In this document: positions 6,151 through 24,395 of the stretch, piece by piece
How positions within the stretch are numbered: position 1 is the stretch's first letter
How the letters are laid out: the number at the start of each line of letters is the position of its first letter
Source: Nitrospirales bacterium
GTDB lineage: Bacteria; Nitrospirota; Nitrospiria; Nitrospirales; UBA8639
Length of the DNA stretch: 64,000 nucleotides
Assembly (NCBI GenBank): GCA_041737015.1
Contig: JBGSSO010000381.1
Location: 1,304 to 65,303, forward strand
Direction: 5' to 3'
Notes under the pieces: generated by a model
Database searches by the model: none
What the model was told of the DNA's origin: nothing
Seen by the model: only the letters and a program-made list of their open reading frames with translations
Position numbers and translations under genes: made by a program

Positions 6151-8652
6151 CTACTGATTCGGAAGTTCGGCTTGGTTCTGGATGACAAAATAGTCCAATT
6201 CCAATGCGCCGGTATCCGATAGCACCTCCAATTTGATCGTATGGGAACCGGCGGAGAGCGCCTGTGATAATCGCATCTCTTGCGTCACCTCATAATCCCC
6301 CAAGACGCCCCGATCGTCCAACTCGATCGTCGACTGGCGCCGGCCATCAACAGAGATCGTAACCTTATCATCAGCACTTTTGCCCTTTGTATATCTCAGA
6401 CGAATACTCGGGTTCGGAATGTTCTCGGTCAGGTGTAACACATAATTCGCTTCTCCCGTCCCTCGTATCGTGTGTCCCGCGGACGCCGTCTTGCGGGGCG
6501 ATTTCAGCAGGGTACCCGAGCGGTAGTCCTCAGCCTGCTGGGTCACAAGGTAGCCTATTGGTCCCAGCACTTCGATTTTGAAATCCGGGCACGAGGTATT
6601 GTGCCGCGAATAGGTAGGCCGGTCAAAACTCCAGGAATCGCCTGGGATCGTTGTCCATTCCTCATGGTTCGGATCGATCGGGTACGTCTGCACGACACCG
6701 GACGAGGATGCGGCCTGAATACGGGAGATATCGCTATTATCATTGGCCACCCACATGGAACGCATGGTAACAAACGGCGCGGTGAGGGTGTCATACGTCA
6801 CATCCGTCACGCGCACCGTCGTCTTGCCCGGTTCGGCCTGGAGCTGCAATACCGCGGACGATCCGTTTTTATATCGCACCTTGATGGTCATCGTGTGCGG
6901 ATCGATATCCAGCCTCTCGATCGGAATGAACGGAAACAAGGGGTCCTCTGCCGCCGGCCCAATAATCATCGAGGATCCGAAACAGACCCGCTCCTCCCGT
7001 CCCACCGGGGGTTGCGTAATAATCCGCGCGTATCCATTGGCATAGAGCACAAATATTTGCGGGGGGGCATGATCGTCGTCCGTCCGTTTGAGAAGCTGGA
7101 TAAAATCGTGGTCCGGCTCCGATGGTCCACCCACGATATTGACGGCCATCCCCGATTCATAGGGCCACCCGGACACATCCATGACGCGAACCGCCACATC
7201 ACCGTCGTTGTAGATGTCCTTACCGTCGAGATCCGCGATGTCCACAAAACCCGAGGTCACCAAACTCGCATACTGACCGGCGGCACCGGATGCGAGGACC
7301 TGAGGGGTATCCCACTGCGGTGCGGTCATTTTCGTCTTCGCCAGAAATTTTAAGCTCTGATTGTCTGCATCGTAATAGGCAATATTCGGATACCCTCTTG
7401 CCGTCACTCCCAGCGAGGCAAACCGTCCAACATCCCCCACCGCATCAAGAACGATCCCCACCGGCCATTGTGCTACGGCGGCGTCTTTGTAAAGGTATTT
7501 TAAATCCTTATTCGTGGCATCATAATACGCCACATGCAGAGCCCCATCCGGACCAAACGCCGTCGACGTATATTGACCGACATCTCCTGCCGCATCCAAC
7601 ACCAGCGGGATCGACCACCCCTGTTCATCCTGATAGATGTATTTTAAATTTCCGTTGCTCGCATCGTAATACGTGATATGCGGATAATGCCCTTCATACG
7701 CCCCGTTCATTTTCTCTGTCCAACCCTCATAGTACAGGCTCATTGAGGCGTAGGTCCCGACATCCCCGACGGCATCCAGGACCACGGGCGCCGACCATCC
7801 ATGCGTGTCGTCATTCATGACATATTTCAAATCCTTCGTGTCCGCATCGTAATACACCACATGCAGGCTGCCCGTGGGACCTATCGCCATGGCCGCCTGC
7901 TGCCCGACATCGCCGTTTGCGTCCAGGATCGTTGGGGTTGCCCATCCGCCCACTGCATCCGGATTGCTCTTGTAGGTATATTTTAAATTCCCGTGATCCG
8001 CATCGTAATAGACCACGTGATGCCGCCTATCCCGACTAATGCGCAGCGAGACGTATTTTCCGACATCGCCGGTAGCATCGACAATCTCCGGCTCGCGCCA
8101 CTTCCCATTTTCATCCCGGATAATATACATGAGGTTTTGTTTGACCGCGTCATAATAAGCCATAGCCGGTGGCGCGCCTAAGCCCACCCAATACCGGTCA
8201 GTCGGCGGATACGCCAGCGACACATATTGTCCGACATCCGCATTGACCGCATCCGGCGTTTCAATCGGATACCAATAGAAGCCAGGCGACTGCCAGACAA
8301 ATTTCAACTTCTGTTGCGCCGCATCGTAATAGGCAATCTGCGCCGTTGGCCGCATATCCCACGCCCGTTCGCAGTTGGTGAGATCTCCAATACAGAGATC
8401 CTTCTGCCCGCGTTGGAGTGGATAATAGGTCGGAAAGGTCGCAGTAATTTGATAGTCGGACACATAACCGCCATAGATCGGAATATTCACATTGTCCTCT
8501 TCCGCACACTGTGACGGAAAGCTCATATTCTTGGCGTAGCGCACCGTGGTTGCTCCCGCAGCATTAACGCTTTGCAGGCCCACCACCACACACAGCATCC
8601 CGATGATCGCCAGATTCTTTGTCTTACACATACGCCAAGCCATAACCATCAA
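6151..8652 (-). CDS. Secreted protein with 7 beta-propeller repeats and a C-terminal CBM6/35-like module
   Basis: Signal peptide; seven ~48-aa repeats (HxxYYDAxxxxLKY...W...LDAxGDVGxYxS); C-terminal QAEDY...HTIKLE...LELDYF. Confidence 0.8.
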   Translation of the reverse strand: MMVMAWRMCKTKNLAIIGMLCVVVGLQSVNAAGATTVRYAKNMSFPSQCAEEDNVNIPIYGGYVSDYQITATFPTYYPLQRGQKDLCIGDLTNCERAWDMRPTAQIAYYDAAQQKLKFVWQSPGFYWYPIETPDAVNADVGQYVSLAYPPTDRYWVGLGAPPAMAYYDAVKQNLMYIIRDENGKWREPEIVDATGDVGKYVSLRISRDRRHHVVYYDADHGNLKYTYKSNPDAVGGWATPTILDANGDVGQQAAMAIGPTGSLHVVYYDADTKDLKYVMNDDTHGWSAPVVLDAVGDVGTYASMSLYYEGWTEKMNGAYEGHYPHITYYDASNGNLKYIYQDEQGWSIPLVLDAAGDVGQYTSTAFGPDGALHVAYYDATNKDLKYLYKDAAVAQWPVGIVLDAVGDVGRFASLGVTARGYPNIAYYDADNQSLKFLAKTKMTAPQWDTPQVLASGAAGQYASLVTSGFVDIADLDGKDIYNDGDVAVRVMDVSGWPYESGMAVNIVGGPSEPDHDFIQLLKRTDDDHAPPQIFVLYANGYARIITQPPVGREERVCFGSSMIIGPAAEDPLFPFIPIERLDIDPHTMTIKVRYKNGSSAVLQLQAEPGKTTVRVTDVTYDTLTAPFVTMRSMWVANDNSDISRIQAASSSGVVQTYPIDPNHEEWTTIPGDSWSFDRPTYSRHNTSCPDFKIEVLGPIGYLVTQQAEDYRSGTLLKSPRKTASAGHTIRGTGEANYVLHLTENIPNPSIRLRYTKGKSADDKVTISVDGRRQSTIELDDRGVLGDYEVTQEMRLSQALSAGSHTIKLEVLSDTGALELDYFVIQNQAELPNQ

Positions 8653-8676
8653 GCGATCTCCTCACGTCTCAGTAGT

Positions 8677-8694
8677 AATGTGAATGTTCACGTT
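8677..8694. promoter_or_regulatory. Palindromic operator-like site
   Basis: AATGTGAATGTTCACGTT, 14/18 self-complementary, about 25 bp upstream of the 833-aa gene. Confidence 0.35.
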
Positions 8695-8903
8695 GACCGG
8701 GTTTTGAGAGCCGGGTGTGATCCATACCCACATGCCCGCCTTCCGCCCTTGTCGTGTTTCATCTCAAATCATCAATCACGCCCAAAGGTCGCCTGAGTAA
8801 CACGCGGCACCTCGATGAGGTGTTCGTCCCCATGCAAGGACCACGGCAGTATCTCTGGCATACGGTTGATCCGGGCAGGCCGCCACGTTGAGAATCCGAC
8901 AAT

Positions 8904-11900
8904 TTACCATTTGGCCATCAACGTGAACTTGTTGCCTGAGAACCAGATACCGTGATCATCCACACGGTAGCTGTCATCGCCCTCAACGGCCACCTGCTTA
9001 GGCTTACCCTCCATGTGGATTGGCCAGCGCACATAAATTTTTCTATCCGTGTCTTTTGGCATATCCACATCCAGATTCAGTCTCTGATCGGTGTCATCCC
9101 ACTTCGCCTGCATCATCAGGTTTCCGAAATGCGTGGGAAAATTCGAAAGCGCAATTCCATCGCCCACAAGCCATTCGCGTGGGGTACCAAACAGCAGATT
9201 CAAGGTTTTGCTTTTATCCTCTTCCATCACGATAAGGCCACGGACAGAATTCACATAACCTGCCCCGACCCACGTATGTGGCATATCACCAATATACACA
9301 CCCTTGCGGCTGTCGGACAGAACCACCTCGGCAAACTCATTCCAATTGGCCGGACGCCTGCCCTTGAACAGAATTTCATGCAGGTCGAAGGCTTCCTTGC
9401 GATACCCTAGGGTTGCAAGAGCCAGAATATTCCGCACCTCGTAAGGCGTATAGGAATAGGGCGTAGAACCGGCATCCCGTTCTTTCACCATCCGGTAATA
9501 GTTCCGGAACGTCCGGTCCAGGATATCTGCAGGCAGAACGTGCCAGGCTTCCGTGGGAAACATGGCAATGGCAATGGAGGTCGGATCAGGAGTACCTTTG
9601 TCCGCATCCACAGGGATATAGTCGAGAGACTTCCAGGCGATAGTCTTTTCAATGGACTCCCTGACGCTTGTGGTGAAATTTTTCGACTCAGTCCTCGCCC
9701 AGTCAGCTAAAAACTTTCGACCCAGGATTTCCGCCATTTCAATCCCGTCCGCCCAACCGCGAATGGCCCAGAAATCATCCCAATAACTGTGCATCGGGGT
9801 AATGAACCCTTCATGACTGATGGACGGAGGTAAGATGCCCTTCAGGCGCTCACCGGCCTCAAGATGTTCATAATATTTCGGATCAAGTGTACGCTCCCGC
9901 AACGTGACAATGTACTTCATCGCCCGGTGCACAGCATCAAAATGCTTTTCCAGGAAATCTCTGTCACCGGTAAAACGATAGTACTCCATGATCGCATAGA
10001 TAAACTGACCCTGGCTGTCCCATTCAATATTCCTCCCCCAGCCGTCATACACCTCACCACTGGTGAAGAGAATGGGAGGCACGAGGCCATCGGGTTCCAC
10101 GCGTTCGGCATACCAATTCAGAAATGCCCTGACCTCCTCGAAAAAACCAAGCCGCATGAGCGTGGCGGAAATGATCGCGCCATCCCGCATCCAGGTCCGG
10201 TTGTAGCTGCGCGCGCCTGGCTGGATGACCACGCCATCGTTGTTCAACAGGATATAGGCTATCTGCGATTTCACGGTATTGACGACGGCCTTGTTGGCAA
10301 GCTCGAATCCCACACGGTTAAGCTTGTCGGTCCAGAAGGTTACATACTCCCGCCGCAACGTCTCGAAGTCCTCGGCAGTTTTCAGATTGGTCAGGGTCTC
10401 ATGCAGGGGAGCCGCAAACACCACCTCCTTGGATTCACCAGGTTTCAATTCAAAGGCATAGGTCCAGGCTGCCGAGAGAAGACCGGTCCCGGTCTGGTCC
10501 TCAATAGATTTGGCATCGCCCTTGCGGTCTGCACCGGCGCCCAGCACGACCCTGCCTCGCAGGTGGTTGGCAATATCACCATGAGCATATGGCGAGGCCA
10601 GGAAACTGTCGGCAGGCGAAAGGGCCAGGTAGGTGTTCTTGTCGTTGATCATCACCAGTTTCCCGGTTTCCCCCACGTACCTGATCGATTTGATAGGCGA
10701 CAATCCGCCATGTTGCCACTTGGGATTGATCTGAGCGGGCCTGACCGTGACGATGAGTTCCCCCTTCCGTACAGTATCGGAGCGATTTTCAAGCGTATGT
10801 CGCACATAGGTCATGCTGGCATCGACAGGCCCGCTGGTAATGGCCTCGGACCTGAAATAAAGTCCATTCCCGGTCTCCCATTTCACGATAGGAACCGGCA
10901 GATACCCGTCCTGCAATTCCTGTCGTATGTTCGCCGCGACGGCAGCCGAATACAGATTGTCACCCTCTTTGACATAAGGCATCAGCATGGGGCCGTCGCG
11001 CCGGGATTCCAGATTGCCATACTCATCGAATAGACTTTCCTCGCTATCCATGGGAAGACCCACCAGAGTCCAGTAGGTCTGATAGCCCCTGACATGTGGG
11101 GGATAATCGCCGAACGGCGCTCTCCGGGCATCAAACTGATAACGAACAAAAGGGGAGAACACTTCCTTGGGACCACGCAACGAAATATCGCTAATCCCAA
11201 AACCGCCCCCGGCTTTCATAGGGTTAGTCAGCACAAGCCTGATGTAGCGGACCTCTGATGGATCATGCGGAACAAAATCGGATTGCCCCTGTGATCCCGC
11301 CGAGACGGAGATGGAGGAGACCTCCTTCCATTCCTTTCCATCCATCGAAATGGCCATATCGACCGAACCGGCATATTGATCTCCCCAGTCGATACGCAAT
11401 CCGGAAATCGTTCTGGACTTGCGCAGGTCCAGAAGCAATTCTGCCCGGTCAACCGCCTCGCTTTTCCAGACGGTATCCTTGCGGCCATCCATCAGAGCCG
11501 GGGTATTCGCACCACCACCCGCGACCACGGAGATATCGACAATGTCGTCAGTCCCTTTGATATCAAATTCCCAGAGGGAATTCCCCCAGCTTGTCGCTCT
11601 CTCCCGTGTATCCAGCCGGACATATCTCGCGGAAACGGGTTGGATGTAAATATCATCCATCTGCCCGTCACCGTCGTCGTTCACATACACCGTCGTCCAC
11701 ACCTTGGCATCGGTCGAAACCAGGAGGTTGTATTTGTTCGAATACCCGTTCTCCCAATGCAGGGTAAAGCCGGTGATCTCAACGACCGTTCCAAGATCGA
11801 CGAGAGCCCATTCCTCATCCTTTGCCTGACTGGACCAGCGGGTCGTCATGTCACTATCCGCCAGGTAACCCGGCAAAAATTCATCGCTCTGAATCGAGGA

Positions 11901-12023
11901 AGCGGTCACCCGCCATGTGTCCTTTGCCGGTATATTGGATGCTGCCAACGCGGCTCTCACGGGCAACATCAGCAGGATCAGGATAGAAAACAATGTCAAC
12001 AAACTGCTCTTGTAAAAGGTCAT
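8904..12023 (-). CDS. Secreted discoidin (F5/8 type C) x2 plus six-hairpin (alpha/alpha)6 glycosidase-like protein, paralogue A
   Basis: Start ATG 12023 overlaps the upstream stop (TGATG); signal peptide; two discoidin modules (DSDMTTRWSS, DGRKDTVWKS); catalytic-domain motifs YNRTWMRDG, GILPPSISHEG, SYWDDFW, YTPYE, IGDMPHTWVG. Confidence 0.85.
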   Translation of the reverse strand: MTFYKSSLLTLFSILILLMLPVRAALAASNIPAKDTWRVTASSIQSDEFLPGYLADSDMTTRWSSQAKDEEWALVDLGTVVEITGFTLHWENGYSNKYNLLVSTDAKVWTTVYVNDDGDGQMDDIYIQPVSARYVRLDTRERATSWGNSLWEFDIKGTDDIVDISVVAGGGANTPALMDGRKDTVWKSEAVDRAELLLDLRKSRTISGLRIDWGDQYAGSVDMAISMDGKEWKEVSSISVSAGSQGQSDFVPHDPSEVRYIRLVLTNPMKAGGGFGISDISLRGPKEVFSPFVRYQFDARRAPFGDYPPHVRGYQTYWTLVGLPMDSEESLFDEYGNLESRRDGPMLMPYVKEGDNLYSAAVAANIRQELQDGYLPVPIVKWETGNGLYFRSEAITSGPVDASMTYVRHTLENRSDTVRKGELIVTVRPAQINPKWQHGGLSPIKSIRYVGETGKLVMINDKNTYLALSPADSFLASPYAHGDIANHLRGRVVLGAGADRKGDAKSIEDQTGTGLLSAAWTYAFELKPGESKEVVFAAPLHETLTNLKTAEDFETLRREYVTFWTDKLNRVGFELANKAVVNTVKSQIAYILLNNDGVVIQPGARSYNRTWMRDGAIISATLMRLGFFEEVRAFLNWYAERVEPDGLVPPILFTSGEVYDGWGRNIEWDSQGQFIYAIMEYYRFTGDRDFLEKHFDAVHRAMKYIVTLRERTLDPKYYEHLEAGERLKGILPPSISHEGFITPMHSYWDDFWAIRGWADGIEMAEILGRKFLADWARTESKNFTTSVRESIEKTIAWKSLDYIPVDADKGTPDPTSIAIAMFPTEAWHVLPADILDRTFRNYYRMVKERDAGSTPYSYTPYEVRNILALATLGYRKEAFDLHEILFKGRRPANWNEFAEVVLSDSRKGVYIGDMPHTWVGAGYVNSVRGLIVMEEDKSKTLNLLFGTPREWLVGDGIALSNFPTHFGNLMMQAKWDDTDQRLNLDVDMPKDTDRKIYVRWPIHMEGKPKQVAVEGDDSYRVDDHGIWFSGNKFTLMAKW

Positions 12024-13147
12024 CAGTGATCTCCCTGACTTGTCGTGAGGTTTCCGGAAGGTTTGTGTCGAAGCTCCTTTCCGTCTTTCCCGAAAAGATG
12101 GCAGTGGTCTGCCGCAATACACACCGTCAGCTTGTCTCCCTTCGCGAAACCGAAATCGCCGGATGCACGACATATCAGCAGGTCATCGGCATCCGGCGTT
12201 TCCAGATAGACATAGGAATGGCTACCCAGTGGTTCCACCAGCTTGATCTCTGTCTCGACGAAGTTGTGCTTACCCCCCGTCGCCAGATGCTCCGGACGAA
12301 TGCCAAGCGTGACCGGAGTATCCGGGGGCAGCTCTCCGGCAACGCCATTCACCTGGATCGTCGTTCCGCTTTGAAGTCGTACCGTTGTGGTATCCCGGCG
12401 GCTCTCGACCACGAACCCGGCCAGGAAATTCATGGCCGGCGAACCGATAAAGCCGGCAACAAAGCGGTTGGTAGGATACTTGTACAGTTCATTGGGGGAA
12501 CCAGTCTGTTCAATGCATCCATCTCTGAGAACCACGATCCGATCCGCCAGTGTCATGGCCTCGACCTGGTCATGCGTGACATAGATCATCGTGGTCTCAA
12601 GCGTCTCGTGCAGTCGTGCAATCTCATGACGCATCTTCACACGAAGAGAGGCATCCAGATTGGAAAGCGGTTCATCAAAGAGGAAGATTCGCGGACGCCT
12701 GACGATCGCCCGGCCAATAGCCGTGCGCTGGCGCTGCCCACCGGAAAGCTCTTTCGGTTTCCGCTCAAGCAGCGCGGTCAGGCCGAGTGTTTCGGCAGCC
12801 GCGCGCACCGCCTGGTCAATTTCTGCCGCAGAAGCTCCGGCAATTTTCATCCCGAAGCTCATGTTGTCATAGACGGTCATATGCGGATACAGCGCATAGG
12901 ACTGGAACACCATCGCAATCCCGCGCTCGGAAGGCGAAAGCCTCGAGACATCGGTCTCACCGATTTTGATGGTTCCCTTATCGATCTCTTCGAGGCCCGC
13001 AATCGTACGCAACAGGGTTGACTTGCCGCAACCCGAAGGGCCGACAATCACCGCAAACTCCCCATCGGGCACATCAAGATCAACCGCAGACAACACGGCC
13101 GTCTTGCCAAAACTCTTGTGAATATTTCGCAGGGTCAGACTAGCCAT
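12023..13147 (-). CDS. Sugar ABC transporter ATP-binding subunit (MalK/UgpC family)
   Basis: Start MASLTLRNIHKSFG at 13147; Walker A GPSGCGKST; signature LSGGQRQR; DEPLSNLD; C-terminal TOBE region. Confidence 0.95.
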   Translation of the reverse strand: MASLTLRNIHKSFGKTAVLSAVDLDVPDGEFAVIVGPSGCGKSTLLRTIAGLEEIDKGTIKIGETDVSRLSPSERGIAMVFQSYALYPHMTVYDNMSFGMKIAGASAAEIDQAVRAAAETLGLTALLERKPKELSGGQRQRTAIGRAIVRRPRIFLFDEPLSNLDASLRVKMRHEIARLHETLETTMIYVTHDQVEAMTLADRIVVLRDGCIEQTGSPNELYKYPTNRFVAGFIGSPAMNFLAGFVVESRRDTTTVRLQSGTTIQVNGVAGELPPDTPVTLGIRPEHLATGGKHNFVETEIKLVEPLGSHSYVYLETPDADDLLICRASGDFGFAKGDKLTVCIAADHCHLFGKDGKELRHKPSGNLTTSQGDH

Positions 13148-14528
13148 GACGCGTATGCACGGAAAGAGGCAGGAAGGGTTCGTCCAGAACCGCACCATTG
13201 GATTCGATAATTTTCGAATAATAACGGGCCGTATCCTTCGGCGTGCGCTCAAGAGTCTCAAAATCGACATGAACAATGCCGAATCGCTTGGCATAACCAA
13301 AGGACCATTCATAGTTGTCCATCAGGGACCAGGCCATATATCCCCGCACATCAACGCCTTTCTCAATCGCGGTCCGGACCGCGCAAAGATGCTGGTTCAG
13401 GTACTGCATCCGCACCGGATCAATGACCCGGCCATGAATCGCTTTCGGCGGATCAAAGAAGGCCGAGCCATTCTCGGTGATATAGAGCGGCATCTCACCA
13501 TAACGACTCTTGAGCCAGAGCAGCGTATCGGAAAGCCCGTCCGGATAGACCTCCCACCCTGTTTCCGTGTAGGTCTTGTGGGGCTGGCGAACGGTCTTGG
13601 CCCTGACAGGCAGACAGTCCGGGCCATCACATGTCACAGCACGCGTGTAATAATTCAGCCCGACAAAATCGATCTTCTGACAAATAAGATCGAAGTCCTT
13701 GGCAGGCCATTCAGGCCAGGCGTCACCGAATATCTCCTTCATTTCCTCCGGATAGGATCCCAGGAGAGCGGGATCAAGAAACTGCCGGTTCATATATGCA
13801 TCGGCGCGATTGGTAGCCGCCAGATCTTTCGGATCATCTGACGCCGGATATTTCGGCTCGATATTCACCACCAGGCCGATTGCATGGGCCCCGACAGCGC
13901 GATAGGCCTGAACGGCCGCACCATGGGCGCGCATCAGATGATGCGCGGCAACCGGCGCTTCATAGTGACAGGAATGTCCAGGGGCCAGTGCCCCATGCAA
14001 ATAGCCGCCATCCGTGACCACCCAGGGTTCATTGAGTGTCGTCCATTTTGTAACCCGGCCATCCAACCGCCGGTACATCGCGTCCCCATAGTCGGCAAAC
14101 CAATGCGCAATGTCCGGATTCAGCCATCCGCCAAGATCGTCCAGCGCTGCCGGTAAATCCCAGTGATACAATGTCAGGAGCGGTTCAATCCCGGCTTCCA
14201 AAAGTCCATCAACAAGTCGTTCGTAGAAATCCAAGCCTTTCTCATTCAGGCTTCCTTTGCCTTCAGGAAAAATACGCGCCCAGGCCACCGAAAACCGATA
14301 GGCTTGCAATCCCAGCTCCTTCATGAGGGCGATATCCTCGCGCCAGCGATGATAATGATCACAGGCGATGTCGCCGGTATCGCCATTCAGGATATTTCCC
14401 GGCGTGTGGGCAAAACGCTGCCAGATGCTCGGGCCTGCACCATCGGCCAGCGGTGCCCCCTCAATCTGGTAGGCCGATGTGGCAGCACCCCAGAGAAACC
14501 CCTCGGGAAACGTCGCGTTTTTTTTCAT
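13140..14528 (-). CDS. GH1 beta-glucosidase (cytoplasmic)
   Basis: FPEGFLWGAATSAYQIEG; acid/base TLNEP; nucleophile ITENG; no signal peptide. Confidence 0.95.
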   Translation of the reverse strand: MKKNATFPEGFLWGAATSAYQIEGAPLADGAGPSIWQRFAHTPGNILNGDTGDIACDHYHRWREDIALMKELGLQAYRFSVAWARIFPEGKGSLNEKGLDFYERLVDGLLEAGIEPLLTLYHWDLPAALDDLGGWLNPDIAHWFADYGDAMYRRLDGRVTKWTTLNEPWVVTDGGYLHGALAPGHSCHYEAPVAAHHLMRAHGAAVQAYRAVGAHAIGLVVNIEPKYPASDDPKDLAATNRADAYMNRQFLDPALLGSYPEEMKEIFGDAWPEWPAKDFDLICQKIDFVGLNYYTRAVTCDGPDCLPVRAKTVRQPHKTYTETGWEVYPDGLSDTLLWLKSRYGEMPLYITENGSAFFDPPKAIHGRVIDPVRMQYLNQHLCAVRTAIEKGVDVRGYMAWSLMDNYEWSFGYAKRFGIVHVDFETLERTPKDTARYYSKIIESNGAVLDEPFLPLSVHTRHG

Positions 14529-14585
14529 CTACCCTTATCCTTTTTGATTAATGGTCTACAACAATCATGTTCGCAGCAGGTGGTT

Positions 14586-17500
14586 TTATGGGGATGCCTC
14601 AAGGACCTCCATAGGGATTCCATTGAATGTCAGCCTGACATCGCCTTTCAGCGAGGGCGGCAGGACATAGCCGCCCGGTGGCATGGTCGATCCTTCCAGA
14701 TCAACACGCACCTGCCCGCCCTCATCACGTGCCGCATAGGACACTTCGCCGTGCGGGGTTCTCAGTCCATGCACCCGGACACCTTCACCCTGTAACCAAT
14801 TTCGCGGCAGACCCGCGCCGATGACCAGTGAGCCGGTTTCTGTATCGGCATAAACAAACAGATCAAGCACCGCCCGGATGAAATCCGATCCCACCCATGT
14901 ATGGGGCATATCACCAATGAAACGCGGTTCCCGTACAAGCCGGCCGATCACCTCGGCCCATTGATTCCACGCTGCCGGGCGGCGATCCCGCATATAAAAA
15001 TCAAGCAGGGCATGGGCACGTTCCAGCTCTCCCAAGCGCACAAACGCGCTCACCTGACGGAATTCATAGGGGGTATAAACATTCCACGCCTTGGTGCCAT
15101 CGCGCCGCGCCACAAACTCGGACCAGGCTTTTTCAAACGTGGCAATCAGCAGCTCCCTCGGCAAGGATGCTGCTGCCCCGGTAGGTGAAAGCGCGATCGT
15201 CGTGGATGTCGGGTCAAAATCTTTTCGGTCCGCGGCCCCCGGCACGTGCCCGAGTTCTTCGCCCAACAATCTGACAGACGCGCTAATATCTGCGGCAAAT
15301 TCGGCGGCATCTGCCCTGATGTCGGCTGCGCGATCTCGGTGCCCAAGTTCCTCAGCAAGAAACGCCGCATCATTCAATCCTTTCAGACCCCAGAAATTAT
15401 CCCAGAAGGAATAGGCAGGACGGTCCAAATAGCCTTCATGGCTCACCGATGGCGGTAACAGACCATAGAAGGCCTTGCGATCACCTTGACGGTTATGCTC
15501 CGTTCGTTCCAACAGCCTCAAATCATCCAGCGCGGCCGCGGCCTTGTCCACATAGGGCCACATGACCTCGGCAAAAGCACGATCCCCGGTGTACCGGTAA
15601 ATATCCACAATCAGAAAAATCAGTTCTCCATGGCTATCATTTTCCACAACCGGATCCGCGCCACGCTTGTCCACACAACAGGGAACTTTGCCACTGGAGA
15701 ACTGGTGCGGTGCGTACCAGCGCGCATACTCAACAGCAGGTTCGTTCTGCCCGAGACGCAGGAAACTTTCACCCATCATCGCTCCGTCACGTATCCACGA
15801 ACGGGCATAGGTTCGTGGCCCCGGACGCAGTGCCGGCCCGTCGCGCGTGATCATCATATGAGCCAACGCGGTTTTCAGACTATTGAGCATCGGCATGGAT
15901 TCAGGCGGGCCCGAAATTTCCACCTGATTGAGGATGTGCCGCCATTCATCGGCTGCCGCCTTTTCACCGGCATCGATGGCCTCGCGGTCCAGGTCGGGCG
16001 TCCGTCCGTCATCAGAACCGAGCACCGTGACGACAGAAACTTCGCGAACCTCACCCGGCTTCAAATCAACATGAAAATACATGGCGCCGGAACCGAAGCC
16101 TCCCGGAGCTACGAGGCTTTGCGAATCCATGCTTGCCCCGGCATCCTGCACATGCGGGAAACCGGCCCGTTCAAATCCCGCGAGCGACACATGGTCCGGC
16201 TTCAGGTCAGGCCACACAGACCAGTTACCATTCACCTGAAACGCTTTGCCATCCCAACCGATCTGCTCAATTTTGCTGGCACCACCCACAAGGTTCAAAA
16301 TCTGCGTGGGCGGATTGACCTGCATGGGGCGGATGGCAAGAGCCAGGGTGAGCGTTCGATGGATCGTGCCGGTATTGACCACACGATATCTGGTCACCAC
16401 ATCACGGGCATTGCCGTCCATCCCGCCTTCTCTTCCAGCGGGAACAGGCGGACGATGTGCACTGATCTCCAATGATAGCCCCTCATGGGTCCGACGCACG
16501 CGCGGCATGGGCAGATAATCATCCCTCAGGCTGTGGTTAAGCCCGGCATCGGCCCAGCCCTGTATGGACCCATTCGCAATCACAAACGGTTCAATCGAGA
16601 ACGCCCCGGGGCCGGGTTCTATGGCGCCATCTTCCGACAGCATGGCCGACCGGCCACCCTGGGGAGCGCCAACAACGGTCCAATAAATTTGTTCACCAAC
16701 GAAGCTGCGCGGATAAGATCCTTTTTTGGTTGCCTGTGCGAGGGACAGCAGAAACTCATTATCACTCTGCCCGAATTCCGGTGGTTCGACCGTCGCGTCT
16801 ATCAAACCAACCTGGCCTCCAGAGGCCGGTTTCACTGAAAGACGAACATAACGCCCGAACGCGTCTGCCATTCGCACATAACCGGTAGTTCCTGGGGGGG
16901 AAGGCCCAATATACAGTTGCCAGTCCGGCACCGTCCACCCTTTTCCATCCTCGGAAAGGGCCATATCAATCGCCTCCGGCATCTGACCTTCGGCCCATCG
17001 TAAGGTCAGACCGCCAAGATCGCGCAAATAGCCCAGATCAAATATCAGGCCCGTGGGTGTGTCGTCAGTCCAGATTGTCTTCGGATTGCCGTCAACGGCG
17101 GCAGGGGCAGGGATATCACCGGCTGTTGCCACGATAGGAGGAACAAAGGCAGGCTGTTCAGGCAAGGTCCGCAGTTCAAGGGTATCGAACTCGACCGTAC
17201 CCTGGTCACCGGTTTCGCCAAGAATCACAAACTCTATTTTGGCGATGGTTTTCAAATTATGGTCCTTTATCGGACCCCATGCAAAGTGTATATCGCTGCG
17301 CCGGATACGGATGGTTGTCCAGTCATCAGGAAACTCGTAATCACGAAACTGCTTCCACCAGACATTCGCGCCACTGTCATCAACCAGCCTCACCTCAAAG
17401 GTCGACTGTGGGGCATGACCCCTGAGCGTGAATGCGATCTCGAAATTGTTTGATAGATCAAGCGGGAGTGCCCGATGTGCATTGGCGGTACCGGCGGTTC

Positions 17501-17741
17501 GGAGTTCATACGACAGTTGAAGCGCATGGCCTCTCACGCCTCCTGTCGTCCTGACAGAGGCCTCACTGTATTCCGTGGCGATTGTCCGCCATTCCCCGAC
17601 ATTCTCAAACCCGTCAATTAACCGAAAATTATTGGCGGCGGTATTCTCACCATACGCGCACACGGCCACTGACAACCAGGCCATCCCGGCAAACAGGCAG
17701 CAGGATGTCCACCATGAATGTCTCATGTATGAACATCTCAT
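14586..17741 (-). CDS. Secreted CIA30/CBM-like plus discoidin plus six-hairpin glycosidase-like protein, paralogue B
   Basis: ATGA overlap with the permease stop; signal peptide; AAVDGNPKTIW discoidin; motifs YARSWIRDG, GLLPPSVSHEG, SFWDNFW, YTPYE, IGDMPHTWVG shared with paralogue A. Confidence 0.85.
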   Translation of the reverse strand: MRCSYMRHSWWTSCCLFAGMAWLSVAVCAYGENTAANNFRLIDGFENVGEWRTIATEYSEASVRTTGGVRGHALQLSYELRTAGTANAHRALPLDLSNNFEIAFTLRGHAPQSTFEVRLVDDSGANVWWKQFRDYEFPDDWTTIRIRRSDIHFAWGPIKDHNLKTIAKIEFVILGETGDQGTVEFDTLELRTLPEQPAFVPPIVATAGDIPAPAAVDGNPKTIWTDDTPTGLIFDLGYLRDLGGLTLRWAEGQMPEAIDMALSEDGKGWTVPDWQLYIGPSPPGTTGYVRMADAFGRYVRLSVKPASGGQVGLIDATVEPPEFGQSDNEFLLSLAQATKKGSYPRSFVGEQIYWTVVGAPQGGRSAMLSEDGAIEPGPGAFSIEPFVIANGSIQGWADAGLNHSLRDDYLPMPRVRRTHEGLSLEISAHRPPVPAGREGGMDGNARDVVTRYRVVNTGTIHRTLTLALAIRPMQVNPPTQILNLVGGASKIEQIGWDGKAFQVNGNWSVWPDLKPDHVSLAGFERAGFPHVQDAGASMDSQSLVAPGGFGSGAMYFHVDLKPGEVREVSVVTVLGSDDGRTPDLDREAIDAGEKAAADEWRHILNQVEISGPPESMPMLNSLKTALAHMMITRDGPALRPGPRTYARSWIRDGAMMGESFLRLGQNEPAVEYARWYAPHQFSSGKVPCCVDKRGADPVVENDSHGELIFLIVDIYRYTGDRAFAEVMWPYVDKAAAALDDLRLLERTEHNRQGDRKAFYGLLPPSVSHEGYLDRPAYSFWDNFWGLKGLNDAAFLAEELGHRDRAADIRADAAEFAADISASVRLLGEELGHVPGAADRKDFDPTSTTIALSPTGAAASLPRELLIATFEKAWSEFVARRDGTKAWNVYTPYEFRQVSAFVRLGELERAHALLDFYMRDRRPAAWNQWAEVIGRLVREPRFIGDMPHTWVGSDFIRAVLDLFVYADTETGSLVIGAGLPRNWLQGEGVRVHGLRTPHGEVSYAARDEGGQVRVDLEGSTMPPGGYVLPPSLKGDVRLTFNGIPMEVLEASP

Positions 17742-18574
17742 CCTTTGACACTTCCCGCAAGGTTTCCGCTCATATAAAAACGCTGAAGCGCCAGAAAAAG
17801 AACCAGGACCGGTGTCACGGTGATCACCGCCCCGGCCATCATCAGCTCAACATCCTGCACATGCTCCCGTGACAAAGATGCCAGCGCAATTGGCAGGGTA
17901 TATTTGTCACTGTCGGTCAGGACGATCAGCGGCCACAAAAAATCATTCCATGCAGCCATAAAGGTAAACAGCCCCAGGGTAATCAGAATGGGTGTCAGTA
18001 ACGGCACCACGACCGACCGGAAAATGCGTAGTTCACTGGCCCCTTCAATCCGTGCCGACTCGATCAGTTCCGTCGGAATGGACAAGGCATACTGCCGTAC
18101 GAGAAATATACCAAATATGCTGGCCACAAAAGGGATCAGCACACCGATCCAGCTATTCACCAGCCCCATCCCTTTCAACATCAGGAACAGCGGAATCATG
18201 GACACCTGGGCCGGAATGACCAGAGCGCTTAGAAGCCCGCGGAACAGCAATTGCCTCCCCTTAAATTCCAATTTGGCAAACGCATAACCGGCAGCCACAT
18301 TAAACGTGAGGGACAACAATGTAGCCGCCGATGCGACAAACAGGGAATTCAAGAAGTTTCTTCCCATGCTGGAATATTCAAAGAGCTTGATATAATTGGC
18401 GAGCGTCGGATGCTCCGGCAACAGCGGCGGCGGAAAATTGCTGGCCTCTCCCGGAGCCATAAAGGACACACTCAGCATCCACAGCAACGGGAACAAAGCA
18501 AACACGGAAAGGAACGACAGCCCAATATTCGTCCCGGATCCTCTCCACATATTTCTCATCGGCTTACCGATCAT
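17738..18574 (-). CDS. Carbohydrate ABC transporter permease (MalG/UgpE type)
   Basis: Six TM segments; EAA-type motif ELIESARIEGAS; WNDFLWPL. Confidence 0.95.
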   Translation of the reverse strand: MIGKPMRNMWRGSGTNIGLSFLSVFALFPLLWMLSVSFMAPGEASNFPPPLLPEHPTLANYIKLFEYSSMGRNFLNSLFVASAATLLSLTFNVAAGYAFAKLEFKGRQLLFRGLLSALVIPAQVSMIPLFLMLKGMGLVNSWIGVLIPFVASIFGIFLVRQYALSIPTELIESARIEGASELRIFRSVVVPLLTPILITLGLFTFMAAWNDFLWPLIVLTDSDKYTLPIALASLSREHVQDVELMMAGAVITVTPVLVLFLALQRFYMSGNLAGSVKG

Positions 18575-18611
18575 ACAGAATGTATAGCTCCCCCCTCTTC
18601 ATGTGCATTCC

Positions 18612-19079
18612 GTCTCCCATAGTCCGACGCCTGCCGTCTGCCCCAAGAAAGGACGTTCTCATCACAACACATTCTTACTATAGTTATTCCAATTAATTTC
18701 AAAAGTCCTCTTTATCTGTGTGCTATCCTCGCCGCTGCATGACGCCTGCCGGCTGGCCAAAGGGAGGACGCTCTCATTCCCCGGCGGACCTTGTTTGAGT
18801 CCTACGACAAAGCTCAGGACAGGCTCCGCGAGTTGGTCCGCTTTCCCCAAGTTTGCGTCCGTCCCCTCTGATGAGGCCAGACGGGGCGTCCATGGTTTTG
18901 GGTCCTTTTGCCGAAACAAAAGGACCTCGCCAGCCGGGGCGAAACCCGGCAACATAGAAAAACCCCTCGATACGAAAGTTAATTGCACAAGTTCGAAGTG
19001 CGAATTAGCCATCGTTTTTCCTCGCCAACTCCAAGATGGACTCCCGATTATCATTAAACCTGTAAGCCCAGAACCAAAC
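18612..19079 (+). repeat. ~460-bp structured dispersed repeat, copy 1 (MITE/REP-like)
   Basis: Aligns along its length with 21318-21770; internal inverted motif CAATTAATTTC (18690) / GAAAGTTAATTG (18974); hairpins at 18901-18926 and 18933-18950. Confidence 0.9.
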
Positions 19080-19961
19080 TCACACTCCACTCCCATACCG
19101 GCGCATCACCACAAGCTGGCCGATTGCCGCCACAATCATAAATACAAAGAGAATAAAGGCCACGGCGGATGCCGATCCCAGGCTCCACCATTTAAAGCCT
19201 TCTTCATACATCAGATAAATAATGCTGAGCGTACTCTGGACGGGTCCTCCCTGTGTCATCACATAGGGTTCGGCAAAAAGCTGGAAGTATCCGGCCATGG
19301 TTAGCACCCCGACGAGAAACAGTGAGGGAATCAGAGAAGGCAGAGTGACATTGAAAAAACGCTGTCGGGCATTGGCCCCGTCAATCCGCGCAGCCTCATA
19401 CAAATCGCCGGGTATCGCCTGGAGGCCCGCCAGAAGAATGATCATATTGTAGCCAAAATTTTTCCAGACCGCGAAAAGGATGATGGACGGCATGGAAAAA
19501 TGCGGATCACCCAGCCAGTCCACAACGGGGAGACCCAACCAGTCGAGGGAATAATTGATCAAGCCATAACGGGTATGCAGGAGATATCGCCAGATCACCG
19601 CCACGGCCACAATCGTCGTCACGACGGGCGCAAACAGTGCCGTCCTGAAAAATCCTTTGAACCGAACCATCTGCCCATTCAGCAACAGAGCCCCCGCCAG
19701 TGACACGAACACCGAAAGGGGCGCACCGACGAGCACGAAATACAGCGTATTACCCAGGGCCTGCCAGAACAGCGGCCGTTGCAACAGCTCAATATAGTTT
19801 TGGAAACCCACAAACCGGAGGTTGCTAAGGTCGGCCAGAGCATAGATATCAAAGTCCGTCAGACTGAGGGCCAAGGCAGCCAGCACCGGCAGAAAGAAAA
19901 AGACGGCAATGATCGCCAGCGCCGGCCCGGCAAACAGCCAACCTGCCACAGAGGATCTCAC
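19080..19961 (-). CDS. Carbohydrate ABC transporter permease (MalF/UgpA type)
   Basis: FVGFQNY; EAA motif LYEAARIDGAN; multiple TM segments. Confidence 0.95.
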   Translation of the reverse strand: MRSSVAGWLFAGPALAIIAVFFFLPVLAALALSLTDFDIYALADLSNLRFVGFQNYIELLQRPLFWQALGNTLYFVLVGAPLSVFVSLAGALLLNGQMVRFKGFFRTALFAPVVTTIVAVAVIWRYLLHTRYGLINYSLDWLGLPVVDWLGDPHFSMPSIILFAVWKNFGYNMIILLAGLQAIPGDLYEAARIDGANARQRFFNVTLPSLIPSLFLVGVLTMAGYFQLFAEPYVMTQGGPVQSTLSIIYLMYEEGFKWWSLGSASAVAFILFVFMIVAAIGQLVVMRRYGSGV

Positions 19962-21268
19962 GACTCTGCTCCCTCTTCCCGCGCCAGCATCCAGCGACGC
20001 TTTTCAAGAATGCGATCGATCCGGCCATCCAATTCACGCGCCGCCTCGGCAGCCGTCCATTTCTCATGCACCGCACGCTCCGTCACCATGCGCAATTCCT
20101 GCACGATACGTTCCCACTCAGGGATTTTCGGTGCCGGAAGCGCGCGCTCAAGCTGCTCCCTGAAGGCCACAAGATACGGATCTGATTCAAGCCGGTCTCC
20201 GCGCCAGCTTGACCGCCGAGGCGGCAGATTGCCACTGATCTCGTAAAACTGTTGCTGGATGGTTGGACGGGACAGGAATTCAACAAGCCGGAATGCCGCA
20301 TCTTTATGCGCTGAATGTTTAAACACCACCAGGCTGGAACCGCCTGCTGTCGAGGCACCCGGACCCGAAGGCCCCGGCAGGATGGCCGTCATCCAATCAT
20401 CCTGCAGATCGGTAGGCAACCGGCGACGGAATTCACCAATATTCCACGGCCCGGTCAAATAGAAGGTAAAGTGGCCGCGTGCAAATTCATCCCACACATT
20501 GGCAATGTCGGTTTCACTGGAAGGCGGTGCCAGTCCCTTGCGGAAAAAGTCGAGATAAAAATCAAGGGCGGCTACCAGCTCAGGGCTGGAAAAATTGCCA
20601 TACCGGTCACCGTCCCGCAGCAAGGGTACCCCTTGTTGAAGAGCAAGAGACACCTGCATCTCATATTCATTCAGTGGCACGTAAAAGGCAAAGTTGTCTT
20701 TTCCAACATGGTGCTTCACGGCCGTAGCGGCCTGAATCCATTCAGCCCAGTCACGTGGAGGGCGAACAATCCCGGCAGCCCTGAGAATATCCTGCCGGTA
20801 AAAGAGGAGCCGCGTATCCACATACCAGGGCACCCCGTACAGTGTCTCGCCAACCCTGTTCGTCGCCCAAATACCCGGGAAATAATCCTCTTCCTTAATC
20901 ACGGAAGAAGCACCTGCCATCTCGTCCAGCCCGGCAACGGCATCAAGCGCCGCAAACTCCGCTATCCAGGTATTGCCCATCTGGGCCACATCAGGCAGGG
21001 CGTCTCCGGCAAAGGCCGTCAGCAGTTTTTCATGGGCCGAGGTCCAGGGAATCTGCTGGACTACGACACGAACCCCAGGATTCTCGCGTTCAAATTCTTT
21101 GAGCACCTCAGGAACAATCTCCCCTTCACGGCCCATAGCCCAGAACTTAATTTCCAGAATATCATCCTGCCCGCTCCCACTTGTGCATGCGGCAAACATG
21201 GCCGCCAGCAGAATGAAGGCAACTACAAACATCCCCGCTGTTTTTTTTGACGATATTTTTTTGGTCAT
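19958..21268 (-). CDS. Sugar ABC transporter substrate-binding lipoprotein
   Basis: Likely start ATG 21268 or 21298; lipobox FAAC; family-1 SBP motifs (LPDVAQMG, YGVPWYVDTRLLFYR); the ORF-track 5' extension runs into the repeat. Confidence 0.92.
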   Translation of the reverse strand: MTKKISSKKTAGMFVVAFILLAAMFAACTSGSGQDDILEIKFWAMGREGEIVPEVLKEFERENPGVRVVVQQIPWTSAHEKLLTAFAGDALPDVAQMGNTWIAEFAALDAVAGLDEMAGASSVIKEEDYFPGIWATNRVGETLYGVPWYVDTRLLFYRQDILRAAGIVRPPRDWAEWIQAATAVKHHVGKDNFAFYVPLNEYEMQVSLALQQGVPLLRDGDRYGNFSSPELVAALDFYLDFFRKGLAPPSSETDIANVWDEFARGHFTFYLTGPWNIGEFRRRLPTDLQDDWMTAILPGPSGPGASTAGGSSLVVFKHSAHKDAAFRLVEFLSRPTIQQQFYEISGNLPPRRSSWRGDRLESDPYLVAFREQLERALPAPKIPEWERIVQELRMVTERAVHEKWTAAEAARELDGRIDRILEKRRWMLAREEGAES

Positions 21269-21317: not shown

Positions 21318-21770
21318 GTCTCCCCTGCTCCGACGCCTGCCGGCTGGCCCAAGGGAGGGACGCTCTCATCACAACTCGTTTTCCCTAAAGTGATTCCAAT
21401 TAATTTCCAAAGCCATCTTTATCCGTGTGTCCCCCTCGCCGCTGCGGTGACGCCTGCCGGCTGGCCCAAGGGAGGGACGCTCTCATCCGCAGGCGGACCT
21501 TGTTTGAGCCCGGCGAGTTGGGCCGCCCTCCGCAAGTTTGCGTCCGTCCCCTCTTATGAGGCCAGACGGGGCGTCAATGGTTTTGGCCACTTTTGCCGAA
21601 ACAAAAGTGGCTCGACCGCCGGGGCGAAACCCGGCAACACAGAAAATCACGTTGCTACGAAAGTTAATTGCACAAGTGCGATGTGCGAATCAGCCACCGT
21701 TTTTTTTCTAGCCAAATCCAAGATGGACTCCCGATACACATCCTCAAGCTGTAAGGCCAGAAACATACAT
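21318..21770 (+). repeat. ~450-bp structured dispersed repeat, copy 2
   Basis: Direct-orientation homologue of 18612-19079; inverted motif at 21397 and 21659; hairpins at 21586-21611 and 21618-21635. Confidence 0.9.
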
Positions 21771-22435
21771 TCTGAATGATCCTATTTTTCCCAACCTGTT
21801 GTCATGCTTTTCAGTATGCTTTCTGAATGAATGATCGGCTTTGGCATCAGACGGTAATCCGAAGATTGTCCGGATATGAGGTAGCCTTACAAATGGCACG
21901 GCATTGTCAAGACGACCGGGGATTGACTGGCTGGAGCGTTGAATATGAAACCGTCCGGTAATATTTGTTCCAAGGGAATACCGACCATTTCTCCCGGTCT
22001 CAGGCGTTTCAGGTCTGGAGGGAGGTAGCATACGCAAAAAAGATAAAGTAACGATTCTGGGATGGAGCCTTATTTCCTTTGCACCCCTAGGGGCTCGCCG
22101 CTCAGACGCACAAGATAAAAATCTTCCGCGACTTCAATTTCCATTTTCCTCGCCAGCCCTCCCGCTCGCCGCTGAAGCCAGTTTTGGGGGAAATCGGCTG
22201 AAGTTACGACTGACAGACAAGGGAAACCCTACAAAAGCTTAGTCTCTGACCGAAAATTTGTCCGAAGATAAATGCTGTCCGCCGAAGCGCCTGGCGAAAG
22301 TCGTTATAGATGTATTGTGTGCGAAAACCGCCGAGTTCCCCTGCCAGGTCCTCACATGATGGGCTTGAGTAGCAGTTAGCCGGAATGAGTGGTAGATTGG
22401 TCGCACAAGAAAAATTAACGACTCCGGCCAACTTT

Positions 22436-23704: not shown

Positions 23705-24395
23705 GAATTTTCCCTCATGAAGTGCAAGATTTCGTTTGTGGGATACCAATAGTCACCATACTAAATTGGATCAATAAATGGAATGCGTGGCAATAACAAT
23801 AAATTTAAGAGAAGGATCTCCCTAAATACTCTTCACAGTTTTCATTCATCAAGTTTGTATAGTCATTTTTGCCATTGAAAGAAATCAGATCTGGTTATCC
23901 CACATGAGCCACCTACACTCTCGCTATGGCTCATCCGTTGCGGCTTGAATCTCTGGGGCCATCTATCTCATGTCACATTTTGGGGCAATGCTCGACAGGA
24001 CATCCTCCCCGATGATCGAAACCGCACCCACTTTCCTTGAACTGCTGGGCAAACGGTGAGAGACTGATGGACTTCTTTTTCCAAGGGGTAGATAGTCCCA
24101 TCCAAAATTCACTACCAATCCACGCATTGGCATTCGAACGTGAATGCCCGGGTGCAGAGTCTTTCCTGGGTTACACCTTCGAAAGCCTTTTTTTGGGAAA
24201 CAACCCATGATGCTTCCTTCACGCTAAAGAAGTGTAAGGCTCGAGGGGTCTGTCAACACGGAAGCACGCACCTCTGGCCTTTATCACAAAAATTGTGAAA
24301 ATCCCATGATCATTATTGCGGCCTTCATCGGTGCATTGGCGGGAGAAAACAGGAATAGAATAAGGCCAAATACTGGATGAGAGAACCGTGAGGAA

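Follow-up and report, generated by a model that had tools for sequence, protein, structure and literature searches.

A candidate beta-1,2-glucan salvage operon in a marine Nitrospira genome

The operon and its products

The DNA described here is a 64,000-nt stretch (the window) of contig JBGSSO010000381.1, positions 1,304 to 65,303, from the genome assembly GCA_041737015.1 of a Nitrospirales bacterium. Eight co-oriented genes on its minus strand (6151-21268), every one with an intact reading frame according to open reading frame (ORF) listing and domain scans, make up an apparent operon for the use of an oligosaccharide. In gene order, they encode a lipoprotein substrate-binding protein (SBP) of a CUT1-type ATP-binding cassette (ABC) importer (19958-21268; Pfam SBP_bac_1), a MalF/UgpA-like permease 1 (19080-19961; BPD_transp_1), a MalG/UgpE-like permease 2 (17738-18574; BPD_transp_1), protein B of 1051 aa with a signal peptide and one F5/8-type-C module of carbohydrate-binding module (CBM) family 32 (14586-17741), a cytoplasmic beta-glucosidase of glycoside hydrolase (GH) family 1 (13140-14528; TIGR03356 and Pfam GH1), a MalK/UgpC-type ATPase (12023-13147; ABC_tran, OB_MalK and TOBE_2), protein A of 1039 aa with a signal peptide and two CBM32 modules (8904-12023), and an exported propeller protein of 833 aa (6151-8652) with seven repeats and a weak CBM35/6-like C-terminus (CBM_35_2). 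A preliminary description, based on the letters and ORF translations of this DNA, had given the same run of genes, coordinates and roles, and the domain scans bear it out.

The intergenic distances, again in gene order, are -4, +505, -4, +57, -8, -1 and +251 nt. The GTG start of permease 1 overlaps the SBP stop by 4 nt, the stop of permease 2 overlaps the start of B by 4 nt, and the ATPase gene overlaps those of GH1 and A by 8 and 1 nt, respectively. The run had been called largely translationally coupled, which holds for most junctions but passes over the 505-nt gap between the permease genes. The cluster had also been called more GC-rich than the core genes. At 54.8% GC it exceeds both the remainder of the window (49.8%) and the genome as a whole (50.2%), but single housekeeping genes in the window reach 56%. 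A horizontal origin argued from GC content was set aside, since the difference is modest and overlaps the range of housekeeping genes; cross-phylum sequence identities were used instead. Neither a regulator nor a TonB-dependent receptor was found among the scanned ORFs of the window, as already reported, and in the same ORFs the outer-membrane transporter and the regulator of a SusC/D or TonB-type polysaccharide utilization locus are both missing.

The SBP has a lipobox-like N-terminus (FILLAAMFAAC) and matches PF01547 (SBP_bac_1) at E 5.6e-42. In a search of all PDB sequences the best match was an uncharacterised protein from Xanthomonas citri (3UOR, 485 bits). The top characterised match was Lin1841 (5YSB; 227 bits, E 2.6e-66, about 356 residues aligned over query residues 36-391); 9XF5 scored 132 bits, and maltotriose-, cellodextrin- and beta-glucoside-binding proteins scored at most 124 bits. 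Lin1841 is the Listeria innocua protein LiSO-BP, which binds beta-1,2-gluco-oligosaccharides with a degree of polymerization of 3-5 (Sop3-5) (PMC13731917). By sequence comparison, the SBP belongs to the LiSO-BP (Lin1841)/3UOR family, with homology over the whole fold. Four ligand residues of Lin1841 named in PMC13731917 were mapped from the printed alignment, with the numbering offset confirmed at three of the four; the SBP keeps E45 and W268, and 3UOR shows the same pattern.

The remaining parts of a CUT1-type importer are all present alongside the SBP_bac_1 protein. Both permeases match PF00528, with UgpA/UgpE- and MalF/MalG-like matches, and the ATPase has the OB/TOBE domains of the MalK type. 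Its score against NF008233 is 473 bits, below the equivalog cut-off of 568, so that it is MalK-like rather than MalK itself. The GH1 protein exceeds the TIGR03356 cut-off (600.4 versus 478.5 bits), matches Pfam GH1 at E 1e-161, contains both catalytic glutamate motifs, NEP (TLNEPW) and ITENG (YITENG), and has no signal peptide. Its best PDB match is 6JFP (727 bits), with 5GNX also near.

Proteins A and B are paralogous (30% identity over 847 aa, E 2e-98), and nine carboxylates are invariant among A, B and 30 homologues, B keeping all of them. Protein A consists of two CBM32 modules, a beta-sandwich, an (alpha/alpha)6 barrel and a C-terminal beta-sandwich; protein B has an N-terminal module with no assigned identity, one CBM32, a beta-sandwich and an (alpha/alpha)6 domain. 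An AF2 model of the C-terminal 709 residues of A (pLDDT 90.4, pTM 0.91) was compared with known structures using Foldseek, which returned GH94 cellobiose phosphorylases, GH116, the GH94 part of cyclic glucan synthase, and GH15, all at TM values of about 0.5-0.6 and about 12% identity. The GH15 matches were glucoamylase 1LF6 and dextran dextrinase 9JU0 (TM 0.56-0.58), and the model follows the GH15 fold plan, in which a beta-sandwich precedes the (alpha/alpha)6 barrel.

At the level of sequence, A matches TIGR01577 in part (E 1e-12; 47 bits, where the cut-off is 820), and a PDB search with a profile of the barrel found a single shared motif, W-x-R-D-G, in a GH15-related isomaltose glucohydrolase (E 0.06); nothing in that search fell below E 0.05. 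Single-sequence and profile searches of the PDB with A and B matched CBM32 domains and no relative of the catalytic domains. The GH15 label that the orthologue of A bears in Nitrospira marina was rejected, since Pfam Glyco_hydro_15 is unmatched, TIGR01577 lies far below its cut-off and the barrel profile reaches only E 0.06. Membership of A in GH94 or among the 1,2-beta-oligoglucan phosphorylases (SOGP) was likewise rejected: PF17167 and PF06165 are unmatched, a signal peptide is present, and the likeness is one of fold (TM 0.60). The export of A also makes a phosphorylase role unlikely. Neither A nor B matches PF10091 or MdoG, and neither has a PDB sequence match to 5GZH, 8XUL or 8XUK. About 3000 relatives appeared in the first protein search, and a literature search turned up no paper characterising the family. 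A and B thus belong to an uncharacterised, distantly GH15-like family and are likely hydrolases, as their export, six-hairpin barrel and conserved acids would suggest. The earlier designation of both as secreted glycosidases agrees with their signal peptides, but neither falls in a characterised glycosidase family, and the label reflects fold and motifs.

The 833-aa protein has a signal peptide and seven direct repeats of about 50 aa each. Its AF2 model (pLDDT 74) shows a seven-bladed propeller with flanking beta-rich segments, and the propeller resembles the sugar-binding lectins PLL and PHL of Photorhabdus (TMt 0.77-0.81). Full-length relatives are confined to Nitrospirales; weaker ones are encoded beside A homologues in Kiritimatiellae and Verrucomicrobiota. 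The gene adjoins that of A in Nitrospirales and also in one locus each of Kiritimatiellae (L016) and Verrucomicrobiota (L014). Most simply, the model and this association would make it a lectin-like, glycan-binding helper.

Related loci and the proposed substrate

The closest relatives found outside Nitrospirales for the SBP, the permeases, GH1 and B are encoded in Xanthomonadales, in loci with the same modules. Identities to the Nitrospira proteins are 49-58% for the SBP, 61-69% for the permeases (68-69% for permease 1), 70-72% for GH1, 49% for the ATPase, 39-41% for B and 33-35% for A. The hosts include Solilutibacter (L063, L069), an Ahniellaceae member (L049), Chiayiivirga (L034), Pseudoxanthomonas (L040) and Luteimonas. 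In these loci the SBP gene adjoins a GH144 gene (PF10091). The product of one such gene scored 572 bits against XCC2207 (8XUL) and 172 bits against CpSGL (5GZH), the endo-beta-1,2-glucanase of Chitinophaga pinensis; XCC2207 has been reported to hydrolyse beta-1,2-glucan (PMC12102758). Besides GH144, the Xanthomonadales loci carry a LacI regulator and often a GH3 gene, none of which is present in the Nitrospira version, and by these additions they look like regulated scavenging loci. Two of them (L040, L068) also have a tryptophan-halogenase-like gene, again absent from Nitrospira; a member of this group in L069 was scanned as Trp_halogenase.

The association extends beyond Xanthomonadales. A gene for GH144 or a SOGP-type GH94 lies within 10 kb of the A-family gene in 15 of the 70 non-Nitrospirales loci (one Snuella locus being counted twice, as L011 and L081), and these 15 are spread over Bacteroidota, Kiritimatiellae, Verrucomicrobiota, Xanthomonadales, Polyangiales and Alphaproteobacteria. 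GH144 is otherwise rare, with one occurrence among 14 control genomes. The locus of Snuella lapsa (L081, BAABCY010000032.1) consists of genes for a GH3 enzyme, a Por_Secre_tail protein, a Laminin_G_3 protein, a major facilitator superfamily (MFS) transporter, a SOGP-type GH94, an A homologue and a CBM6/35 protein that itself carries the Por_Secre_tail domain, a type IX secretion signal. The sole match of its SOGP was the 1,2-beta-oligoglucan phosphorylase 5H3Z (596 bits), and no SusC/D pair was seen within 16.7 kb; it is a candidate flavobacterial beta-1,2-glucan locus.

Taken together, the layout of the operon, the kinship of its SBP and these loci support beta-1,2-glucan as a substrate well, though by association only. 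A link between such cassettes and GH144 had been raised in the preliminary description, and the neighbourhood data lend it good support. We therefore consider it probable, with moderate confidence, that the operon is a system of marine Nitrospira for the salvage of beta-1,2-glucan and sophoro-oligosaccharides. Proteins A and B, with CBM32 modules on a GH15-like (alpha/alpha)6 core, would cut beta-1,2-linked glucan outside the cytoplasm, aided by the lectin-like propeller/CBM protein. Short beta-1,2-gluco-oligosaccharides would then be bound by the Lin1841-type lipoprotein and imported through the two permeases and the MalK-type ATPase of the CUT1 transporter, and the cytoplasmic GH1 would split them to glucose, which would enter glycolysis. 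What we infer in this scheme is that beta-1,2-glucan is the substrate, that A and B are hydrolytic and that they reside either in the periplasm or on the cell surface.

The nature of A and B also admits a different chemistry, in which the bond they cleave would be alpha-glucosidic or otherwise unusual, such as the single alpha-1,6 link of alpha-1,6-cyclised beta-1,2-glucans or a bond in a substituted unit. Speculatively, they would act on molecules left unfinished by GH144 and beta-glucosidases, opening or trimming them. Their sequence kinship is to GH15-type enzymes only: the partial TIGR01577 match, the archaeal trehalase TreH1 and the isomaltose glucohydrolase mentioned above. The family is conserved throughout Xanthomonadales. 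In many loci it accompanies GH144 rather than replacing it, so that a complementary activity is conceivable. Xanthomonadales are known to make alpha-1,6-cyclised beta-1,2-glucan (PMC11228985), and beta-glucosidase together with GH144 leaves an undegradable glucopentaose from such glucans (bioRxiv 10.1101/2025.04.21.649730), a leftover that counts in favour of this activity. However, this Nitrospira genome has no stand-alone GH144, and with A and B assigned to such a bond no exported product of the operon would yield oligomers for import. The top Foldseek matches are to the beta-acting families GH94 and GH116 as much as to GH15, and the fold does not settle anomeric specificity. We regard this alternative as improbable.

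The cell's own glucans, expression and conservation

Beta-1,2-glucan salvage does not require an external polysaccharide, since the genome itself contains genes for glucan synthesis and the substrate may be the cell's own periplasmic glucan. A cyclic glucan synthase (Cgs) of 2876 aa scores 1988 bits against that of Agrobacterium tumefaciens over its full length. Its gene (contig C193, 2970-11600; L093) contains the sole PF10091 match of the genome, and orthologues with 83-94% identity were found in seven further congeners of the sample and in a second genus (two genomes). Its neighbours encode a copper P-type ATPase and a GH65 phosphorylase. Elsewhere in the genome, opgG-opgH lies at a contig edge (C149:1-3763), and a second OpgG/D paralogue is encoded at C363:636-2063. 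Two relatives have opgGH beside the operon, each in its own arrangement. In the congener G041 (L096:15654-19701) the pair lies downstream of the propeller gene, 1 kb away, and OpgH reaches 864 bits on the MdoH model, whose cut-off is 419; in G039, which belongs to a different genus (L097:3-3411), the pair is divergent and lies 1.4 kb upstream of the SBP gene. Within the genus, OpgG/D is found in all eight sampled genomes with A and in none of the 13 without it (Fisher 5e-6). All eight Cgs-containing congeners hold an A-family gene, a distant one in the case of G073 (35% identity), but five genomes with A have no Cgs, and Cgs was dropped as a strict partner of A.

These neighbours might instead point to a role of A and B in making or remodelling periplasmic glucans, as transglycosylases or size-trimmers in the manner of OpgD and OpgG, with the transporter and GH1 only loosely associated. 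The adjacency of opgG-opgH in two lineages and the perfect co-occurrence of operon and OpgG/D within the genus would fit such a role, as would the constitutive expression of orthologues (see below). Known enzymes of osmoregulated periplasmic glucans, which have other folds, combine hydrolysis with transglycosylation (PMC10514313, PMC11228985). On the other hand, the B gene is tightly coupled to that for permease 2, and the A gene to those for the ATPase and GH1, which argues for one catabolic unit. In heterotrophs such as Snuella the same module, there combined with GH3, SOGP and an MFS transporter, has a catabolic look, and another genus (g8) has OpgG/D without A. We give this role a slim chance, slightly below that of an alpha-bond activity.

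As a gene cluster the operon is already known. Genes NMARINA_v1_3346-3357 of N. marina Nb-295 were described as a "putative carbohydrate degradation operon" (Bayer et al. 2021, PMC8115632), with orthologues in the same order: a sugar ABC module, BglA, a secreted "GH15" protein (A), an F5/8-type-C protein (B) and an 832-aa carbohydrate-binding protein. No substrate was proposed there, and the amendments supplied included no sugar (PMC8115632). In the proteome of cells grown in nitrite mineral medium A was the most abundant protein of the operon, at about 40-57 units; BglA (GH1) was at 10-22, the ATPase at 1-7, the 832-aa protein at 4-13 and B at 9-19 spectral counts (PMC8115632). Cgs was not found in the proteome tables by name or by length. 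Among RNA runs, none closely matched the present organism, and relatives were found at 90-95% identity: contigs from estuary and groundwater metatranscriptomes cover all eight genes, with a contig depth that is not a measure of expression. The operon is thus known and expressed in a close relative. The present analysis adds beta-1,2-glucan as the likely substrate, a connection with Cgs and OpgGH, and the finding that A and B represent a widespread uncharacterised family associated with beta-1,2-glucan loci.

These data also bear on a more conventional view, that the operon serves general scavenging of environmental beta-glucan such as laminarin, cellodextrins or mixed-linkage glucan, with A and B extracellular and growth mixotrophic. 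The GH1 clade with 6JFP and 5GNX consists of beta-glucosidases of a general kind, secreted degraders of polysaccharides typically come with CBM32 modules and a lectin/CBM protein, the closest homologues of A outside Nitrospira are from the marine degraders Verrucomicrobiota, Kiritimatiellae and Flavobacteriia, and further relatives of the SBP bind cellodextrins and other beta-glucosides. However, the SBP is much nearer to Lin1841 than to those binders (227 versus at most 124 bits), no recognisable laminarinase or cellulase was noted beside the 70 loci, where the recurrent partners GH144 and SOGP are beta-1,2-specific, the scanned window has neither an outer-membrane uptake component nor a regulator, and the orthologues are expressed without substrate. 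General scavenging is therefore unlikely in our view, though the strongest of the competing explanations. The preliminary description had likewise proposed extracytoplasmic depolymerisation and mixotrophy in a chemolithoautotrophic lineage. That proposal is overstated. N. marina produces A, B, GH1, the ATPase and the 832-aa protein constitutively with nitrite alone in the medium, and the genome has its own glucan genes.

Within the preferred reading, salvage of beta-1,2-glucan, the recycling of the cell's own periplasmic glucans is about as likely as the scavenging of glucans from neighbouring cells. Self-salvage is made as plausible by the adjacency of opgGH in two arrangements, the constitutive expression of orthologues, the presence of Sec-type signals only, and the lack of an outer-membrane transporter or regulator. 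Under either source the label "mixotrophy" is premature.

The host is, from its sequence relationships, a true Nitrospira and marine nitrite oxidiser. The genome comprises 4.64 Mb in 405 contigs (50.2% GC, 95.6% complete, 4.5% contaminated). The nearest named homologue of A is that of Nitrospira sp. Ecomares 2.1 (87% identity), while metagenome-assembled genomes (MAGs) of Nitrospira and Nitrospirales reach up to 94%. Three frames of about 1050 aa for NxrA-like alpha subunits of type-II DMSO reductases are present, as would be expected for periplasmic NxrA paralogues, and they support the nitrifier lineage that had been surmised from the sequence. The order of the eight genes is shared with at least seven other Nitrospirales assemblies (L002, L004, L006, L008, L009, L010, L097). 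In six congeners (G037, G043, G047, G057, G061 and G069, three of them single-contig) A and B are about 6 kb apart and 20-45 kb from a clpC-like gene, in the same relative order as here. Identity of the operon genes is 73-98% across many species; the immediate flanks vary, and flank synteny is shared only with L008. A binning or assembly chimera, which had been named as a possible source of error, is ruled out, because the same order and chromosomal position recur in closed congener genomes. One of the assemblies with this gene order carries the label of a Hyphomicrobiaceae MAG (L006, JBFWVC010000025.1); its complete Nitrospirales-type operon has gene positions nearly matching those of the Nitrospirales locus L009, and this contig probably entered the public MAG through mis-binning.

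Within the 505 nt that separate the permease genes lies one copy of a dispersed repeat of about 460 nt (18613-19079), in direct orientation with 21319-21704. This second copy (21319-21780) lies directly upstream of the SBP gene, in the 5' region of the operon, and at least 88 blastn matches occur genome-wide. Inside the intra-operon copy a terminator-like hairpin with a T-run lies on the operon strand (18947-18922). The orthologous operons L004, L096 and L097 have no repeat at this junction, and L010 has a gap of similar size. In two metatranscriptomes the summed contig depth of the repeat bins is 10-30 times that of the neighbouring genes, as expected for a multicopy element.

Such features raise the question of whether the operon is a decaying relic of a horizontally acquired locus with no present function in this organism. 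In Ecomares 2.1 (L001, OZ224219.1:855013-878132) only a 63-aa GH1 fragment, the ATPase, A and the 833-aa gene remain, beside an IS (rve) transposase; this transposase and a 2716-aa protein with SpvB/TcdB-type domains are encoded upstream. The operon of G041 has no B, the SBP gene of N. marina lies apart from the permease genes and its product was undetected, the hairpin-bearing repeat parts the permease genes here, and GC content is slightly raised. All eight frames are nevertheless intact here, across many species they show 73-98% identity and keep their place in the chromosome, N. marina makes the orthologous proteins and transcripts of close relatives are present in the environment. A relic is the least probable of the explanations considered and very improbable indeed.

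The rest of the window is housekeeping DNA (pfk, pyk, dfp, hflX, tsaD, a clpC-like gene, nadK, comEC, glmM, ftsH and tilS). A distance of 5.3 kb separates the start of the pfk fusion from the SBP gene, in keeping with the roughly 5 kb given before. The fusion codes for a 771-aa protein (26563-28878, minus strand) in which the PFK domain is confined to residues 425-722; the N-terminal 420 residues have no Pfam match at E <= 1e-4, and the protein had been read earlier as a phosphatase-PFK fusion. The DNA between the operon and the pfk fusion is AT-rich and encodes a pentapeptide-repeat protein with a C-terminal TIR domain (22436-23749, minus strand).

Several observations weigh against the salvage of beta-1,2-glucan. 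Of the ligand residues mapped in the SBP, D193 is replaced by Pro and Q197 by Tyr, in 3UOR as well, and these two are said to govern chain-length recognition in LiSO-BP (PMC13731917). A and B fall outside the known endo-beta-1,2-glucanase families, listed in PMC12102758 as GH144, GH162, GH186 and GH192-194, in sequence they are akin only to GH15-type enzymes, whose substrates are alpha-glucosides, and their CBM32 domains are nearest to chitosan-binding modules. The A homologue stands alone in most Stenotrophomonas loci, and where GH144 is co-present A and B must act differently from it. In the N. marina proteome the SBP and both permeases were at 0 (PMC8115632). As for the tie to the cell's own glucans, the A-containing genomes form essentially one clade plus G041, so that few independent events underlie the co-occurrence with OpgG/D and its p-value is to be discounted, and five of them lack Cgs. 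The repeat with its terminator-like hairpin, finally, divides the permease genes in this genome.

Nitrospira are treated as CO2-fixing nitrite oxidisers, and uptake of organic compounds by them matters to models of nitrification in oceans, sediments and aquaculture biofilters. A beta-1,2-glucan substrate would give marine Nitrospira a concrete, testable sugar and would connect the operon with the synthesis of glucan by the cell itself (Cgs, OpgGH), with a bearing on osmoadaptation. As a large GH15-like family encoded beside GH144 and SOGP in many phyla, A and B are good candidates for a missing activity in beta-1,2-glucan breakdown. A bolder version, to which we give tentative credence at best, is that they found a new GH family acting on beta-1,2-glucans in at least six lineages, and that a nitrite oxidiser recycles its own periplasmic or cyclic glucans through an ABC importer. 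To our knowledge, no salvage route for osmoregulated periplasmic glucans has been described before; this one would travel together with opgGH. A general beta-glucoside importer would, by comparison, be ordinary and already published.

Comparison with known systems

The nearest known counterpart is the operon of N. marina, from which the present one differs in arrangement. Here the SBP gene is coupled to permease 1 and the repeat parts the permease genes, whereas in N. marina the SBP gene (2597409712) is separated from the permease gene (2597409706) by about five genes, as judged from the IMG identifiers.

Compared with known clusters for beta-1,2-glucan and sophoro-oligosaccharides, the operon has the SBP homologue and the beta-glucosidase, while the depolymerase slot is taken by an uncharacterised family that is linked to this glucan by neighbourhood alone. 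With lin1839-1843 of L. innocua (SOGP, a GH3 beta-glucosidase and the LiSO-BP ABC transporter) it shares an ABC importer with a homologous SBP and an intracellular beta-glucosidase. It differs in that a phosphorylase is missing, GH1 takes the place of GH3, exported enzymes are present and the residues corresponding to D193 and Q197 are replaced.

A closer parallel in gene content is the Streptomyces griseus cluster SGR_2422-2427, which encodes a Lin1841-like SBP, a sophorose (Sop)-specific GH1 and a GH193 glucanase (PMC12369401). Both systems combine a Lin1841-like SBP, two permeases, GH1 and a glucanase slot in one cluster, and the same logic is proposed for both, namely to depolymerise, import and split to glucose. 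The glucanase of S. griseus belongs to GH193 in clan GH-S, whereas the slot is occupied here by an unrelated GH15-like family with CBM32 modules. The GH1 enzyme is, as judged from the PDB search, nearer to 6JFP and 5GNX than to SGR_2426, the beta-1,2-specific type marked by Gln229 and Trp291 at subsite +1, and the host, unlike S. griseus, is a diderm chemolithoautotroph. In domain plan, protein A agrees with the enzymes of GH15 and GH94, in which a beta-sandwich is followed by an (alpha/alpha)6 domain and a C-terminal beta-sandwich. It departs from them in its export and in having genomic partners that act on beta-glucans.

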